From positions 3,584,001-3,648,000 of the forward strand of contig OZ244621.1 in the NCBI GenBank assembly GCA_965218425.1: a stretch of 64,000 nucleotides of DNA, given 5' to 3'. Source of the stretch: an uncultured Candidatus Binatia bacterium. Lineage in GTDB: Bacteria > Desulfobacterota > Binatia > UBA9968 > CAXXLF01. Made by a program: the position numbers. Position 1 is the first letter of the stretch. Each line of letters begins with the position of its first letter. Below, piece by piece: positions 30,001-36,000 of this stretch.

Positions 30001-33000
30001 CGTCCGGTGGACAAACCATGAGGCCAGCACCGCAACGAACATGATGCCCCCGCCGCAGGCGACGGCTAATATGATAGTGTTCTGAATGGTGGACCAAAAA
30101 TCCCCGGCACTTACCACCTTTACGTAATTTTCAAAGCTGGCAATGGATAATGCTGCCACTGATGGGATCTGGTAGAACGGCAACAGTGAGGACCAGACCA
30201 GGATGAAAAATGGCAGGAGGACCCCTACGAAGGCGTAAAAGCCCACAAACGCATAGGCAGGGTACTTCCAGGATCCAAGGGGAATGAGACGCGGACGATA
30301 ACCTTTGCCTGCCACCACGGTGTAACGTTCCGAGTGATACAAGGCTCGCTGATAAATAACGAGTGCCGCCACGGTGATGACCACCAGGGTCATGCTGTAG
30401 GCGAAACCAAGCCCATAGTCTGGCGGGAAGGCACTGCGGAGAGAGTAGTAGATGTTGGTGCTGAAGACGAAGATGCGGGAGTTGAATCCCAGGAGCATGG
30501 GAATTTCAAAGGACTCGATGCCGCGAATGAATAGGAGCAATACAACTCCGGCGAGACCCGGTGTCAGCAGTGGAAGGGTCACCTTGGACAGAACCTTTAC
30601 CGTGGAGGCACCGCTGCCGAAGGCGGCTTCTTCCAGGGTTGGGTCCATTCGACGAATAGTTGCCCCGATTAGGAGGAAAGCCAAGGTGCTCATGCTGATC
30701 CCCTCGACCCAGATCATGGCAGGAAGCGAATAGGCGCTGAGCAGAGGGCCATCAAACCCCAGGGCTCTCCACCATTGGTTGAGTAACCCAATTCTCGGTG
30801 AGAGAAGAAAGATCCATGCAATTCCCTTGACCACACTTGGCATAATCAGCGGTACCAATACGATGACCGGTATGAACTGCCTGAAACGCATATCCGTGCG
30901 CTCGGTAATAAAGGCCAAGATCCCGCCTAGGGTCGCCGCGACCACCATGGAACCCACGGCAAACCATAACGAGTTGAGGAGCATGGTGAAGGTCCGGGGA
31001 TTGGAATATGCCTCCCAATAATTCCCCAGGGTGAAATGGCTAAGTCCGAACCCCAGGTCTCCGACGCTTACTTCACGAAAGCTGTTGAGAACCAACAGAC
31101 CCAGGGGAAAGGCCACCAGGACTCCTAGAATCAGGGTAAGAACCCAGAATCCAATCTTCCCTGCGTTGAGCCGAAGTCCCTGAAAGGCGAGAATCACGCG
31201 GGTTTGCCGGGTGGCAGATACACTCACGGTTCAGGCCTCTTTTTCACTGATTAGCTCTTCTATTTCGTTTCCGCCGATCTTGATGCCGCTACTTGATGCC
31301 TAGTAGTTTGAAGAAGAAGGTTTCAGATTTCTTTTGAATCTTTGTATCAAACATCAGCTCCACGTCCATAGGCGTAGTGTTATCCACCGTGATGTCATTG
31401 TCCGTAAGCCATTTCCCGAGTTTACCGGCCTTGGCCTTTTTGTTGACTGGGACCTTAGCCGAAATAACTTCGGTGTATTCATGCTGTCCTTCGGGCGACG
31501 TGAGGTAGTCGATTAAGAGCCAGGAAGCAGATGGATGTTTAGCACCCTTGAGGATGCCAAAATTACGGAAGGTTCCGCTGAATCTAGGGAAGGCCACAAG
31601 GCCAATGGGTGCCCCTTTGAAATACATGCGAGAAGCTGGTCCCACCACGCCAAACCAAAACATCGGGACCTCGCCTGCGGCCACCCGCTTGATGCCGCCT
31701 CGATAACCCCGACCAATCATTGGTTTTTGTTTTGCCAGTTTTGTGAAGAAGTCGAAGGAGCGCTCCCAGTTCAATTTTCCACCCTTAGACCAGAAGTACG
31801 CCATTTGAGCAGGCATTTCCTCTGATGACCGAGACAACATAGTTTTGCCGGTCCATTTGGGGTCCGTCATCTCTTCCCAGGACTTGGGTATATCTTTGGG
31901 TGATACGAGCTTCGTATTATAGACTCCTTGCACTCTGGGATTCAAAAACGCCTTGATGTAAAGCCCATGCTTCGGTTGCGTTCCCGACGCGAAATCCCGT
32001 AGGTGGGGGAACTCGTGCTTGACCAACAGATTCGCCTTGGCCAAGATTTCTTCCCCATCGCTGCTGACGGCGGGCAAATCAAAGCTAAGCTTGCCGGCTT
32101 TGGATTCGGCGACGATTCGATTGATGGTATCGGCAGTGTTTCCTGCAAACGCTTTGAGTTTTAGAAATGGGTACCTCTTCTTAAATCCTTTGAGTTCATC
32201 ACGAAAATTATCGGCATTGCTGCCGGCCACAACGAATTCACCTTCTTTCTTGGCCTTCTCTATCATTTGATCGCGCAGCGAAGAACCATAAAGGGCTCCT
32301 GGTTGAAAACCCACGATTCCCACGACAAGCACTAAAACGGTCACCTGGTGTAATCTGAACACGAAACTCATTATAATCCTCTTTTGGGTGATATCCCTTT
32401 GATATGACTGTGTTTCTATGACCGGTATGGTGTACGGCTTATTTACGAAACTAACCCGGGCAAGCAAATTGCCAAAGGGCCTTGTACTATGGCTATTGGA
32501 TTGAGTCAAGTGGCCGATTCGCCGGTCTTGACATTACCCAGAAGGGGGAATATAAATATACAGGATATAACCTTTTAAACTGATCCTGTGAGATCAGAAA
32601 GGTATCGTGAAAAACAAGCAACTCGCAAATCATATGAAGACCCCCTGCGGTAGCTCCGTTGGGGTCTTTTTTTGTCTATGGAAAGATTAGATCAGGTTTT
32701 ATTCCAGGGAGAAGACATCGAGCGGGCCACCAGTCGCATGGCCCACGAAATCCTCGAAAGTGAGGGGAATGGAGAAGGGCTGGCCCTTGTGGGGATTCAG
32801 ACCCGAGGCGCCCACTTGGTCCAAAGGATAGCCGAGAAAATCGGTTCTTTCAGCGGCACCGTTCCCCCTGTGGGGTCCATCGACGTAACCCCCTACCGCG
32901 ATGACCAGAAAGCAAAGGATGAGACTAGTCCACCCTCGGTTCAATTTCCAATCTCCATTGATGAAAAAACCTTGATCCTGGTGGACGATGTCATATACAC

Positions 33001-36000
33001 GGGTCGCACCATACGTGCTGCATTGGAATTGATTTTTCAACTTGGCAAGCCAAAGAGAATACTGGTGGCTGTATTGGTGGACCGGGGTGACAGGGAACTT
33101 CCCATCAAAGCGGATATCGTTGGCAAGAATGTGCGTGTGCCGGGATTGTCACGGGTCAATGTCCTGCTGAGTGAATTGGACGGGGTAGATCAGGTGACCG
33201 TAACTGAGGAGCAAGGCCTGAACCTTCACGGGGGAAATAGACCCCGAACCACAAACTCACGTTAATCCTTTTGGGGGAACCCCCTGGCCGGGAATGAACC
33301 ATGACTCTGAGGAGAAACTTAAAATTTGAATCCCTGTGCTCACGTACTGGGCGTTATGTTGTTCAACCTGCCTGTCGAGAGTCACTAGGTCGAGCGAGAG
33401 ACCATCGACAGGTGGTACGGGGTAAACGTTAAGGATTGAGCCGTGAATCAACGAGATCTCGTAACCATCGATGACCTTTCGGATGAAGAGATCGAGGAGA
33501 TCTTTCATCTAGCCGATGAAATGGAGTCCGGCGGACATCGTCTCCCAGAATCTTCCATGGTGCCGGGAAAGATTATGGCCACGCTCTTCTACGAACCCAG
33601 TACCAGGACACGTCTTTCCTTTGAATCCGCAATGCACCGACTGGGGGGGGGCGTCATCAGCTGTCCTGACATGAGGTTTTCTTCCACGGCCAAGGGGGAG
33701 AGTATCGCTGACACGGCCAAGGTGGTCTCCAGCTACGCCGACATTATGGTGGTGCGCCATTATTGGGACGGGGCGGTCCAGGCCATGGCGGAACACGCCG
33801 ATGTTCCAATGATCAATGCAGGTGACGGGAGTCATGAGCACCCAACCCAGACCCTCTGCGATCTCTATACCCTACGGAGGGAAAAGGGAAAGCTCAAGGG
33901 TTTAACCCTAGCCATTTGTGGAGACATGAAACATGGGCGAACCATCCATTCTCTCGTGTATGCCCTGGCACGGTTTGGAGTCAACGTTATTATTTTAGCC
34001 GCCAAGGGAATGGAGCTTCCCGAATACGTGATTGATCGAATGGATACTCAGTATCATTACAGCCCTGTTGCGGTTCCTTCCGGCGATCTGAACGCTGTGG
34101 TGACATCCACGGACGCGGTGTATCTCGCTCCGACTCAACCCCATCAGTTGGCCCTCTTCACACAGTCGAACCTGGACATCGAAGGTCAGTTGAGCAAGGC
34201 GGCCTCTGGGCTAAAACTGGACGCTTTCTACGTTACCCGTCAACAGAAGGAGCGTCAGACCGACAATGGTTCCGAGAACGATCAGGAGTATCCCCGGATC
34301 GACGAGAGGTTCTTAAAGATCAAGCGGTTCAAGGAAACGGTTGTGATGCACCCCTTGCCCCGGGTGGATGAACTGTCGCCGGAGGTGGACAAGGATCGAA
34401 GAGGGATCTATTTCAAGCAGGCTGCCTATGGAGTTCCCATTCGAATGGCTCTCCTGAAGTTTTTGTTCGATGCCTCGGAGGCCAAGAGGCCGCGTCCCGT
34501 GCGAAAGCAATACCTTCTCTTCGAAAATCCTGAGCCGGTGGGTCCGCAATGTCCCAATGCCAAATGCGTGACCCGTATGGAGGCCCCCTCCACTCGGCCA
34601 AGATTTGAAGTCCTGTTTACGGGTCCAGGAAGCGGGCTGATTCTCCGCTGTCTTTACTGTGATCACCAACTCCGGGTCCGTATCATCGGACATTTAAAGT
34701 CCAAGCGATATTGCTCCTACGACGCCACCTTGGAACAGACCACCCGGGAGTGGTTGAAGAGCGGAGAATTGGCCGTTTTCGATACCATAAAACAGGCCGA
34801 GGAGCAGTTTTATGAGCCCTATAAAACGGGTCCACAGCGAACGATCATGGATGAAGCTGAGATTCACGAAGCCATCCAGCACATAGCCGAACGAATTGTC
34901 AATGAGGCGGAAAGTCCCGTTCCTCTGCTCGTTCTCGGTATCCGAACCAAGGGAGTGTTTATCGCCAATCGCATGGTAGCTGAACTGGCCAGGCAGGGGA
35001 GAAAGGCGGAGGCGGGAGAGATTGAGGTATTTGGCACCCAGGGTGAAGAGGACGGCAAGCCACCCATCGCATCCGTGAACGATTCATTACCACTCAATAT
35101 AAAAAGCCGTCCCGTGGTTCTGGTGGACGACGTCATTCATACGGGTCGGACGGTGAAAAGCGCCCTTAGTATCATATTCAAATCGGGCCGGCCCCAATCC
35201 GTACGTTTGGCAGTCTTGATCGATAGGGGCCATCGCGAGGTGCCGGTAAAGCCCAATTATATAGGTAAGCACATACCGAGTTCAGAAAGGGAACGAGTTC
35301 GCGTCAAGCTACGCGAGGTGGAAAAGGATGAGCGGGATAAAGTGGTTATCTATTCGGTGATCAATCCAACGGTCCCCGGGTAGCGGACCCTCACTGGATG
35401 AAAGCGGTACTGGCATTAGCGGACGGTGAGGTTTACGTGGGTCGATCCTTCGGTAGTGAAGGCGAGGCCGGAGGTGAGGTGGTGTTTAACACGAGCATGA
35501 CCGGATACCAGGAAATTTTGACGGATCCCTCCTATGAGGGACAAATGGTGGCCATGACCTATCCTGAAATCGGCAATGTTGGGGTTAACCCCGAGGACGT
35601 GGAGTCGCGTAAAGCTTTTGTGAAAGGATTCATTGTCAAGGAGTATTCACCTGTTCCCAGTAACTGGCGCTCTGCGGAGTCCTTGCACCGGTACATGAAA
35701 GAAAACGGCATTGTAGGCATTGAAGGGATCGACACGAGATCTCTGGTCAGACATTTGCGTGATAGCGGTTCCCAAGAAGGAATCATTTCGACGGGCGAGC
35801 AAAACCAGCAGGAACTCATTGCCAAGGCCCAAAGCTCGCCGGGTTTGCTTGGAAGAGATCTGGTGAAGGAAGTGACTTGCAAAGAGCCCTACGGCTGGGA
35901 CCGTGGAATTTGGGAGTTAGGCAAGGGCTATCAGGCGCAGGGGCAAACGGCTTACTCCGTGGTGGCCTACAACTACGGCATCAAGTTCAATATCCTACGG

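Follow-up and report, generated by a model that had tools for sequence, protein, structure and literature searches.

The aspartate carbamoyltransferase (ATCase) encoded in this Candidatus Binatia genome is a single chain of 646 residues made up of four parts: a PyrB catalytic chain, a Cys4 zinc domain of the type known from the regulatory chain PyrI, a connector and a phosphoribosyltransferase (PRTase)-fold domain derived from PyrR (Table 1; positions are those of the window, the whole stretch of 64,000 nucleotides that was analysed). We propose, with a probability of roughly 0.6, that this chain is a self-regulated ATCase carrying a built-in nucleotide-sensing module. A PyrR-derived sensor on an ATCase probably constitutes an undescribed form of built-in nucleotide sensing, and our literature search found no paper on such an ATCase fusion. 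If the proposal is true, pyrimidine synthesis would be under double PyrR-type control, on the mRNA and on the enzyme, from which we infer a new design for feedback control of this pathway.

Table 1. Features of the pyr operon and of the fused ATCase gene
Feature	Coordinates	Strand	Description and basis
PyrR-binding attenuator RNA	32567..32675	+	Binding loop, terminator hairpin and U-run, directly 5' of free pyrR; Rfam RF00515
Free-standing pyrR	32678..33265	+	195 aa; NF003549 190.6 bits (cut-off 138)
Fused ATCase gene	33443..35383	+	646 aa, GTG start; ORF list and family scans
PyrB catalytic chain	33443..34477	+	Residues 1-345; TIGR00670 302.6 bits (cut-off 236.95), NF002032 289.5 (cut-off 263)
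Insertion in aspartate-binding domain	34043..34213	+	About residues 201-257, motif P-H-Q-L-A-L-F-T; alignment with 1ml4
PyrI-type Cys4 zinc domain	34535..34678	+	Residues about 365-412; C370, C375, C403, C406; Pfam PyrI_C
Alpha/beta connector	34679..34834	+	Residues 413-464; conservation in alignment of divergent forms, structure model
PyrR-derived PRTase-fold domain	34835..35362	+	Residues 465-640; NF003549 146.6 bits (cut-off 138)
carA, carbamoyl-phosphate synthase small chain	35398..36522	+	Same operon; CPSase_sm_chain 182.8, GATase 190.8 bits
carB, carbamoyl-phosphate synthase large chain	36592..39849	+	1085-aa ORF directly 3' of carA; BLAST relatives

Pfam profiles recognized on the same chain OTCace_N (173.7 bits, residues 4-145), OTCace (80.4 bits, in two stretches), PyrI_C (26.7 bits with a cut-off of 23.4, residues 369-413) and Pribosyltran (71.1 bits, residues 473-608), in slight numerical deviation from the 167, 24.9 and 64 bits listed for the first, third and fourth of these in a preliminary description of the locus. 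The composition given there, PyrB followed by the PyrI zinc domain and a PyrR paralog, is now on firmer ground by Pfam, profile and structure searches. The genome consists of one contig and is 97% complete; its two OTCace_N matches are the fused gene and a 318-aa ornithine carbamoyltransferase adjoining argD, which confirms the former as the sole ATCase. The nucleotide-binding allosteric domain of PyrI had rightly been reported as missing: PF01948 gave zero matches at E<=1 in this genome, and no such domain was found in 401 sampled genomes of the class either. PyrI_C exceeds its cut-off in this genome only within the fused open reading frame.

Judged by its sequence, the PyrB part is intact and of the PyrI-partnered subtype. 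The STRTR, HPTQ and HPLPR motifs, together with the four cysteines, are invariant in 46 full-length homologues. Nearest among solved chains are 1ml4 and 2rgw, which we take to be those of Pyrococcus and Methanocaldococcus (E about 2e-76), the E. coli chain matches at 8e-61, and 2at2 and 3r7d, presumably of the unregulated Bacillus type, are distant (2e-39). At the site of the insertion in the aspartate-binding domain the chain has 57 residues compared to 18 in 1ml4; this insertion is present in all seven aligned forms that bear the zinc module and in none of four plain ATCases from class members without it, and P230, H234 and L236-T240 are invariant in the 46 homologues.

The cysteines of the zinc site are spaced as C370-x4-C375 and C403-x2-C406, so that the domain described before stands while its position shifts slightly towards the N-terminus, to about residues 370-406 instead of about 380-413. 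All four cysteines remain invariant in alignments of divergent family forms too. PyrI_C, which reached 30.4 bits in the genome scan as compared to the above value from the protein scan, is above its cut-off in three other family members (P0125 28.7, P0126 25.0, P0130 24.4) and just under it in P0129 (23.0), P0155 (23.0) and P0122 (21.4); the scan of P0127 gave no match to it. When the PDB was searched with the family profile, the nine best matches were all PyrI chains (E 1.5e-4, at PyrI residues 105-150). ATCase regulatory chains occupied ranks 1-23 in Foldseek (rmsd 1.5-2.6 A over 42-46 columns, probability 0.82-1.0, with modest E values of 0.026-0.33), and PyrI took ranks 1 and 2 in VIA-align with Z 5.4 and 5.3, the safe level of this tool being Z 8. 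Because the Pfam score, the PDB profile and both structure searches agree on PyrI, we identify the domain as PyrI_C, and what had been a borderline call can be upheld. The model of the full-length fused chain is poor (pLDDT 62, pTM 0.46).

Behind the zinc domain lies the connector of ~50 residues, in which G416, W437, F446, A452 and P459 are invariant and the motif YEPYK-GPQR is found. It is modelled as strands and two helices at pLDDT 76-82, and the one structural match it gave, N-Ada, is weak (Z 4.6, 6% identity). The connector also occurs elsewhere in shorter proteins of 468 and 471 aa that consist of PyrB, zinc domain and connector and have no PRTase domain.

The PRTase-fold domain passes the PyrR equivalog model NF003549, stays under the thresholds of the four remaining NCBIfam PyrR models and matches solved PyrR structures at E 1e-34; the BLASTP alignment of residues 471-646 with the upstream PyrR was reproduced exactly (32% identity over 156 residues, E 3e-28). 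Its phosphoribosyl loop L560-T570 and D594-R598 are kept, and D562-D563-V, T/S-G-x-T and D-R-G-H-R are 97-100% conserved among 39 fused domains. H597-R598, which presumably belong to the RNA-binding surface of PyrR, are 100% conserved, which weakens the assumed loss of RNA binding; in most of the free PyrRs encoded alongside, Glu or Asp stands in place of the DRGHR His. Lost is the R-D-D loop, whose conservation in PyrR is 97-98% (77 sequences presumed to be free-standing). Moreover, 48% of the fused domains have Trp for the Arg of TGRT, Lys or Gln occupies the position of the conserved Arg that follows, and an N-terminal helix Arg found in 80% of PyrRs and 95% of the neighbouring free ones is not conserved. 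The pocket of the fused domain may be degenerating, or its ligand may be other than that of PyrR. In a quick tree the fused domains form a single clade (SH-aLRT 99) on a stem of 1.02 substitutions per site, a pattern in keeping with a single duplication and a subsequent change of function.

When residues 345-646 were submitted twice to predict_complex, a homodimer was predicted with a score of 0.52, the best of three controls scoring 0.00; this mark is reached by 20 of 30 proteins known from solved structures as pairs of one chain, as against 1 of 23 known as single chains. Between runs at least 95% of the contacts are shared; they involve residues 560, 571-579, 585-589 and 599-605, and partner pLDDT is at least 78. 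A dimerisation like that of PyrR is predicted, and this pass may reflect mere likeness to PyrR, since PyrR dimers had already been solved.

The order pyrR, fusion, carA, carB was found as described before. The Rfam model RF00515 matches over its full length (1-115) with 48.6 bits, the gathering score being 54, and E 1.2e-4; a hairpin resembling a terminator lies at 32653-32665, with CTTTTTTTGT after it, and the Rfam PyrR site is present only 5' of the free pyrR. This gene, which starts at ATG 32678 (TTG 32672 in the mechanical ORF list), encodes a PyrR that matches solved PyrR structures at E 2e-47 and in which the Y-R-D-D loop and the S-R-x-x-H helix are retained. All 38 related loci have a free pyrR directly 5' of the fusion, often with its end abutting the predicted fusion start, and 3' of carA an ORF 70-85% identical to carB is present in 17 related loci. 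In this genome pyrC is ~100 kb distant. Sister families have a complex-type dihydroorotase (DHOase) gene, pyrC, right after the fusion, and because of this adjacency a DHOase-bridged particle is an alternative architecture.

In the mechanism that we propose, the zinc domain would dock on the catalytic chain by analogy with class B ATCase. Since the PRTase domains would pair as PyrR does, three PRTase dimers could link two catalytic trimers, giving a (PyrB-Zn-PRT)6 assembly that corresponds to the 2c3:3r2 holoenzyme. The retained phosphoribosyl loop would bind a 5-phosphoribosyl ligand, by analogy with PyrR most likely uridine and/or guanosine nucleotides, with PRPP as a possibility, and the active sites would receive the signal by way of the connector and the zinc domain. 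According to a review (PMC7430163), PyrR binds UMP/UTP, with GMP/GTP as antagonists, and is active as a dimer. The fused domain would no longer have uracil phosphoribosyltransferase activity or serve as an attenuator that binds RNA, attenuation being left to the free PyrR encoded directly 5', behind its own attenuator. The preliminary description had the CTP/ATP domain replaced by a PyrR-like one; the domains are as claimed, but it is not a swap in place, the sensor following the zinc domain behind a connector. Because this order reverses that of PyrI, a PyrI-like transmission is not to be assumed.

The module occurs in 173 of the 401 sampled class genomes, and in 5 of the 20 families sampled nearly every genome has it; the architecture, formerly thought to be order- or class-wide, is therefore neither spread over the whole class nor restricted to the order. 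Database relatives are about as numerous as reported (694 proteins match residues 345-646 at E<=1e-5, compared to 695 earlier for residues 350-646 at E<=1e-10), and the 120 of them listed are mostly 636-673 aa long with the same Pfam set, some being shorter partial calls.

A spurious fusion of pyrB with the gene behind it, by frameshift or mis-assembly, has nothing in its favour and is refuted by the recurrence of the same frame in these 173 genomes, uninterrupted over ~640-670 aa and free of internal stops, as well as in hundreds of metagenome proteins, and by the conserved connector sequence; we attach practically no weight to it. A purely structural role of the PRTase domain, as a dimerisation or stabilisation module that holds trimers together or steadies the enzyme and has a defunct pocket through which no feedback passes, deserves more consideration but is unlikely. 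The vanished R-D-D loop, the substituted arginines at and next to TGRT, predicted contacts that lie entirely within the dimer interface and the existence of forms lacking any PRTase domain all favour it, yet the three nearly invariant motifs are maintained across families that are ~45% identical overall, to an extent exceeding that in free PyrR, which is hard to square with a dead pocket.

The fused domain might instead work with the free PyrR, in a heterodimer that titrates this attenuator protein against the level of enzyme, or bind the attenuator RNA itself, and thereby couple enzyme abundance to operon expression. This would suit the constant presence of pyrR upstream, the retention of DRGHR where neighbouring PyrRs mostly deviate at the His, and the dimeric action of PyrR; however, pyrR-pyrB adjacency is ordinary operon order and the N-terminal helix Arg is not conserved, so that we consider it improbable. 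Fainter still is the prospect of a bifunctional enzyme, in which an active uracil or orotate phosphoribosyltransferase is joined to ATCase. Bacillus PyrR has uracil phosphoribosyltransferase activity, and the PRTase fold and acidic phosphoribosyl loop are intact here, but the flexible-loop R-D-D triad is lost and family scores for such enzymes are far under their cut-offs (PF14681 19.5 versus 27; NF002620 28.2 versus 115).

The self-regulated ATCase that we favour has the catalytic subtype and the Cys4 zinc domain in common with class B ATCase (PyrB6-PyrI6; E. coli, Moritella and archaea such as Methanocaldococcus and Sulfolobus), and because a dimerising second regulatory domain is predicted, a class B-like 2x3 + 3x2 geometry is plausible. 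It differs in that PyrB is extended at its C-terminus by the regulatory part, PF01948 is absent, the PRTase-fold sensor comes after the zinc domain whereas the allosteric domain of PyrI precedes it, and the chain is longer by a connector of ~50 residues and by ~39 residues inserted in the aspartate domain. A fused PyrB-PyrI ATCase is mentioned for Thermotoga maritima (Chen et al. 1998, as cited in PMC4581275), likewise one polypeptide with PyrB at the N-terminus; the Thermotoga genome has PF01948 in a control search, unlike the protein described here, which scores 94.6 bits against the Thermotoga-type NCBIfam model NF009916 (cut-off 800). With PyrR of Bacillus, Thermus and Mycobacterium (1a3c, 1non, 1ufr, 1w30) the fused domain has the phosphoribosyl loop, DRGHR and the predicted dimer in common, but it is not free-standing, lacks the R-D-D loop and the helix Arg, is set off from all free PyrRs by a long stem in the tree and has a genuine PyrR with an RNA site encoded next door. 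Finally, ATCase-dihydroorotase dodecamers of the Aquifex and Pseudomonas types contain two catalytic trimers and three bridging dimers of another domain (PMC4581275), resembling the trimers bridged by dimers proposed here and the complex-type pyrC that follows the fusion in sister families; their bridge, however, is DHOase, a separate protein without a zinc docking domain, whereas pyrC lies far from the fusion in this genome.

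The aspartate carbamoyltransferase (ATCase) of this genome is encoded together with two further regions as one uninterrupted chain. In Pfam, this fused protein matches OTCace_N at residues 4-145 (173.7 bits), OTCace split over two stretches (80.4 bits), PyrI_C (PF02748) at residues 369-413 (26.7 bits, cut-off 23.4) and Pribosyltran at residues 473-608 (71.1 bits), while NCBIfam recognizes its N-terminal part as an ATCase (TIGR00670, 302.6 vs. 236.95; NF002032, 289.5 vs. 263). Downstream follow carA and carB. Reading frame, family matches and neighbouring genes thus confirm the domain composition and gene order of the preliminary description, which had proposed a PyrB catalytic chain, a PyrI zinc domain and a PyrR-like domain on a single polypeptide. 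It had also held that this is the only ATCase and that the allosteric domain of PyrI is lacking, and both points stand: the genome, which is one contig and 97% complete, possesses argF (adjoining argD) as its sole other carbamoyltransferase, and the PyrI allosteric domain PF01948 gives no match at E<=1 in the fused protein or in the genome. PyrI_C does not exceed its cut-off elsewhere in this genome, and PF01948 is found in none of the 401 class genomes. As no other ATCase candidate exists in a genome of this completeness, the product of the fused gene is expected to have ATCase activity. The coordinates of the features discussed here are collected in the following table.

Positions of the fused ATCase gene, its neighbours and related genes (positions refer to the window unless a locus or contig is named)
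Feature	Position	Strand	Remarks
Two long ORFs upstream	29473-32509	-	584 aa (looks membrane-spanning) and 406 aa
PyrR-binding attenuator	32567-32675	+	RF00515 48.6 bits, E 1.2e-4, under the gathering score of 54
Free PyrR	32678..33265	+	NF003549 190.6 vs. 138; YRDD present
Fused ATCase	33443..35383	+	single open frame, 646 aa, GTG start
Aspartate-domain insertion	34043-34213	+	residues about 201-257, from alignment to 1ml4
ORF downstream	39846-42047	+	733 aa, helicase-like motifs; 4-nt overlap with the end of carB
pyrC of the same genome	G000 contig 3716519-3717787	-	outside the window, ~100 kb away
Complex-type dihydroorotase gene	locus L029, 4862-6220	+	between fused gene and carA; the one such locus tested
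PyrB + zinc domain + connector protein	locus L048, 3776-5179	-	468 aa, no PRTase domain; other class of the same phylum
PyrB + zinc domain + connector protein	locus L056, 3529-4944	+	471 aa, no PRTase domain; MAG labelled Dehalococcoidia

The PyrB part contains STRTR, R-H, HPTQ, R-x-Q-x-ER and HPLPR, which we take to be the motifs of the carbamoyl-phosphate and aspartate sites with the roles they have in E. coli ATCase, and residues S53-R57, R105, H106, H133, P134, Q136, R166, R266, Q268 and H303-R307 are invariant in 46 full-length homologues. The nearest solved chains are 1ml4 and 2rgw (E about 2e-76), archaeal PyrI-partnered ATCases, followed by plant PYRB and the E. coli chain (8e-61), with 2at2 and 3r7d, unregulated ATCases of the Bacillus type, at a distance (2e-39). 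The aspartate domain harbours an insertion (57 residues, compared to 18 in 1ml4), whose motif P-H-Q-L-A-L-F-T is invariant among the same homologues. All seven aligned forms with the zinc module possess this insertion and none of four plain ATCases from class members without the module does, these four sharing just 33-41% identity with the PyrB part. The insertion may serve as a contact surface for the extension that follows PyrB. The full-length AlphaFold model has a pLDDT of 62 and a pTM of 0.46, so that inter-domain docking is not readable from it, and across the insertion it is unreliable (pLDDT below 50).

The zinc domain had been put forward with the reservation that its score lay at the family cut-off; it is now backed by the conservation of its four cysteine ligands, by other family members, by a profile search of the PDB and by structure searches. 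C370, C375, C403 and C406 are invariant in the 46 full-length homologues, in four divergent forms (28-42% identity in this region) and in 37 sequences spanning six families. Among the database relatives, PyrI_C exceeds its cut-off in three other family members (P0125, 28.7; P0126, 25.0; P0130, 24.4) and lies slightly under it in P0129 and P0155 (both 23.0) and P0122 (21.4); P0127 gives no PyrI_C match. When a profile of zinc domain and connector is compared with the PDB, the nine best matches are ATCase regulatory chains (E 1.5e-4), with CxNxNC...CxYC falling on PyrI residues 105-150. Folded alone, this segment reaches a pLDDT of 68, and Foldseek returns PyrI chains at all ranks from 1 to 23 (rmsd 1.5-2.6 Å over 42-46 columns, probability 0.82-1.0, the shortness of the domain limiting E to 0.026-0.33), as VIA-align does at its first two places (Z 5.4 and 5.3). 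H408/H417/C424 was rejected as a second metal site, because its invariance is restricted to close relatives and the three residues vary in divergent forms, which leaves a single Cys4 site.

The connector (residues 413-464) has no Pfam match and no Cys4 site, and is a conserved element in which G416, W437, F446, A452 and P459 are invariant and a YEPYK-GPQR motif recurs. It is modelled as a small alpha/beta unit (pLDDT 76-82). We do not infer homology to the Ada N-terminal domain, the likeness being weak (VIA-align Z 4.6, rmsd 2.7 Å over 47 residues, 6% identity; Foldseek E 0.46, rmsd 9.2 Å). The 468- and 471-aa proteins of the table end after the connector, and zinc domain and connector therefore constitute one unit that occurs with or without a PRTase domain. 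These shorter proteins may represent an ancestral or intermediate form. Two apparently free-standing regulatory chains consisting of zinc and PRTase domain, P0122 (327 aa) and P0126 (313 aa), are really truncated gene calls, since the start of both is a Met inside the C-terminal helix of PyrB, and a 647-aa member belongs to the cluster of P0126.

Among the matches listed, relatives of the fused protein carry the source labels Candidatus Binatia, Binataceae and 'Deltaproteobacteria bacterium'. For one 653-aa fused ATCase, P0121 (59% identity in the extension), the source label is Candidatus Acidoferrales, which could reflect gene transfer or a binning error. With the zinc domain plus connector as query, 6 of 301 genomes of the phylum sample and 173 of 401 genomes of the class sample were positive, the latter distributed over families f1 (3/3), f2 (56/64), f7 (93/94), f104 (19/19) and f102 (1/1); 15 further families, among them f100 (0/27) of the window's own order, had no match. 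Eight unpublished genomes, all matching, enter these tallies and underlie nothing else claimed here (G630, G640, G682, G378, G499, G504, G635 and G663); without them the counts become 165/393 for the class, 53/61 for f2 and 88/89 for f7. A free pyrR gene lies directly upstream of the fused gene in 38 of 38 related loci. In the 19 f1 and f2 loci the fused gene is immediately followed by carA, and in f7, f104 and f102 a gene of ~1.3 kb is situated between both.

The C-terminal PRTase domain is related to PyrR. It matches solved PyrRs at E 1e-34, and the earlier BLASTP comparison with the free PyrR encoded upstream was reproduced exactly (32% identity over 156 residues, E 3e-28). Of the NCBIfam PyrR models, NF003549 scores above its cut-off for residues 465-637 (146.6 vs. 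138), and four others score under theirs (NF003547, 138.7/230; NF003548, 134.5/218; NF003546, 110/268; NF003545, 93.3/140). We compared alignment columns between 77 presumed free PyrRs, chosen by length alone (165-205 aa), 21 rows assigned to neighbouring free PyrRs and 39 fused domains. In this comparison and in the tree described below, the row L007, labelled 'free', is a fused ORF cut at a contig end, which accounts for minority residues of 4-5% in the 'free' columns and for the single 'free' row that falls within the fused clade. The phosphoribosyl-binding loop D-D-V-x-x-T-G-R-T, which reads VLVDDVIHTGRT in the window, retains D, D, V, G and the final T in 100% of the fused domains, and D562-D563-V, T/S-G-x-T and D594-R-G-H-R598 are kept at 97-100%. 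The Arg of TGRT, present in 98% of free PyrRs, is retained in 38% of the fused domains and replaced by Trp in 48%. S-G-W-T stands in the place of T-G-R-T in about half of the fused domains, P0125 and P0126 being examples from f7, and ligand specificity may differ between families. The R-D-D triad of the flexible loop, found in 97-98% of the 77 presumed free PyrRs, is Q533-G534-E535 in the window, and across the 39 fused domains no residue is kept at these positions; through the loss of this loop, the fused domain is not a typical PyrR. Two deeper-branching fused forms, P0130 and P0155 (35-36% identity in the extension), still have an R-D-D-like loop.

In a quick tree of 100 rows, supported by SH-aLRT only and thinned by random removal of 37 of the 77 general PyrR rows, all fused domains group in one clade (support 99) whose stem measures 1.02 substitutions per site. 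A separate clade (support 94) unites the neighbouring free PyrRs, and the tree does not settle its branching relative to the fused clade. This pattern fits a single duplication after which the function changed.

Upstream of the fused gene, the attenuator includes a terminator hairpin and a U-run and ends right before pyrR. Rfam detects no second PyrR-binding site at E<=1 in the 177-nt gap that separates pyrR from the fused gene in the window. A hairpin at 33336-33354 was rejected as a real terminator, being one of 3 terminator-like sites where 0.9 +/- 1.1 are expected. Translational coupling is suggested at eight other loci (L029, L030, L031, L036, L039, L043, L044 and L046), where the earliest possible start of the fused ORF lies directly at the end of pyrR or within it. 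The His of DRGHRE, present in 83% of other PyrRs and at the same position in 100% of the fused domains, is mostly Glu (61%) or Asp (19%) in the free PyrRs adjacent to fused genes (L029-L047; D138 in the window).

We favour, with a probability of about 0.6, a model in which the fused ATCase carries its own built-in sensor. The zinc domain would dock on the catalytic chain in the manner of class B ATCases, the PRTase domains would pair, and three PRTase dimers could bridge two catalytic trimers. As ligand, a nucleotide or PRPP is suggested by the preserved phosphoribosyl loop; according to a review (PMC7430163), PyrR binds UMP/UTP, and GMP/GTP has an antagonistic effect. When residues 345-646 were paired with a second copy, complex prediction gave a score of 0.52, and the highest of 3 controls reached 0.00; among proteins of known structure, 20 of 30 same-chain pairs and 1 of 23 single chains attain that mark. 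At least 95% of contacts are shared between runs, the pLDDT is at least 78, and the predicted interface comprises residues 560, 571-579, 585-589 and 599-605 of the PRTase domain; as PyrR dimers have already been solved, this pass may reflect likeness only. The same pairing would be compatible with a purely structural dimerisation module, a reading that we hold to be unlikely and against which the conservation of the phosphoribosyl loop speaks.

Also unlikely is a Rosetta-stone reading, which makes PyrR a physical regulatory partner of ATCase. The connector of the shorter PyrB, zinc domain and connector enzymes would dock the dimer of the free PyrR encoded directly upstream, so that PyrR would act both as mRNA attenuator and as detachable nucleotide-sensing allosteric subunit, and the lineage of the window would have hard-wired this partnership by duplication of pyrR and fusion. 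At L056, a free pyrR lies directly upstream of the 471-aa gene, with carA directly downstream. It is improbable that the fused domain is instead coupled to the free PyrR or to RNA. H597-R598 is conserved in the fused domains and the helix Arg, present in 80% of free PyrRs, is not, both of which we assume to be PyrR residues bearing on RNA binding and attenuation; the free PyrR keeps the PyrR hallmarks, by which the RNA task is already covered. A second catalytic activity on the fused chain, for which the retained phosphoribosyl loop speaks and against which the lost flexible-loop triad does, seems very improbable, and to an artefactual fusion we attach practically no credence, the architecture being carried by one open frame here and recurring in full-length homologues.

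ATCase is the textbook case of allostery, and the fused ATCase would be a new form of its zinc-anchored regulation. It retains the zinc anchor of PyrI, and the nucleotide sensor would be another fold, borrowed from the pathway's own RNA regulator. If true, the zinc domain would be a general adaptor for allosteric signals, and pyrimidine synthesis would have a second, independent solution to its feedback control. As a single chain, the enzyme offers a handy system for studying how ligand binding is transmitted to the active site from a remote domain. Moreover, it raises the idea of an interaction between PyrR and ATCase in other bacteria.

The consulted portion of a transcarbamylase family review (PMC4581275) distinguishes three types of described bacterial ATCases (unregulated trimers, PyrI-regulated dodecamers and dihydroorotase-bridged dodecamers), also lists a PyrB-PyrI fusion of Thermotoga, and makes no mention of a PyrR or phosphoribosyl domain. 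No description of the PyrB, zinc domain and PyrR-like architecture was found in the full-text literature searched, most subscription journals lying outside its coverage, and databases label these fused proteins plain ATCase or PyrR. The protein is not of the Thermotoga type, because it scores 94.6 bits in NF009916 against a cut-off of 800, with a match confined to residues 4-203 of the PyrB part. Neither is it a PyrI, because PF01948 is absent. With the PyrI of class B ATCases it has the zinc domain in common; however, PyrI is a separate polypeptide that dimerises via its allosteric domain, whereas here the zinc domain is fused to PyrB and the chain is predicted to dimerise via the PRTase domain.
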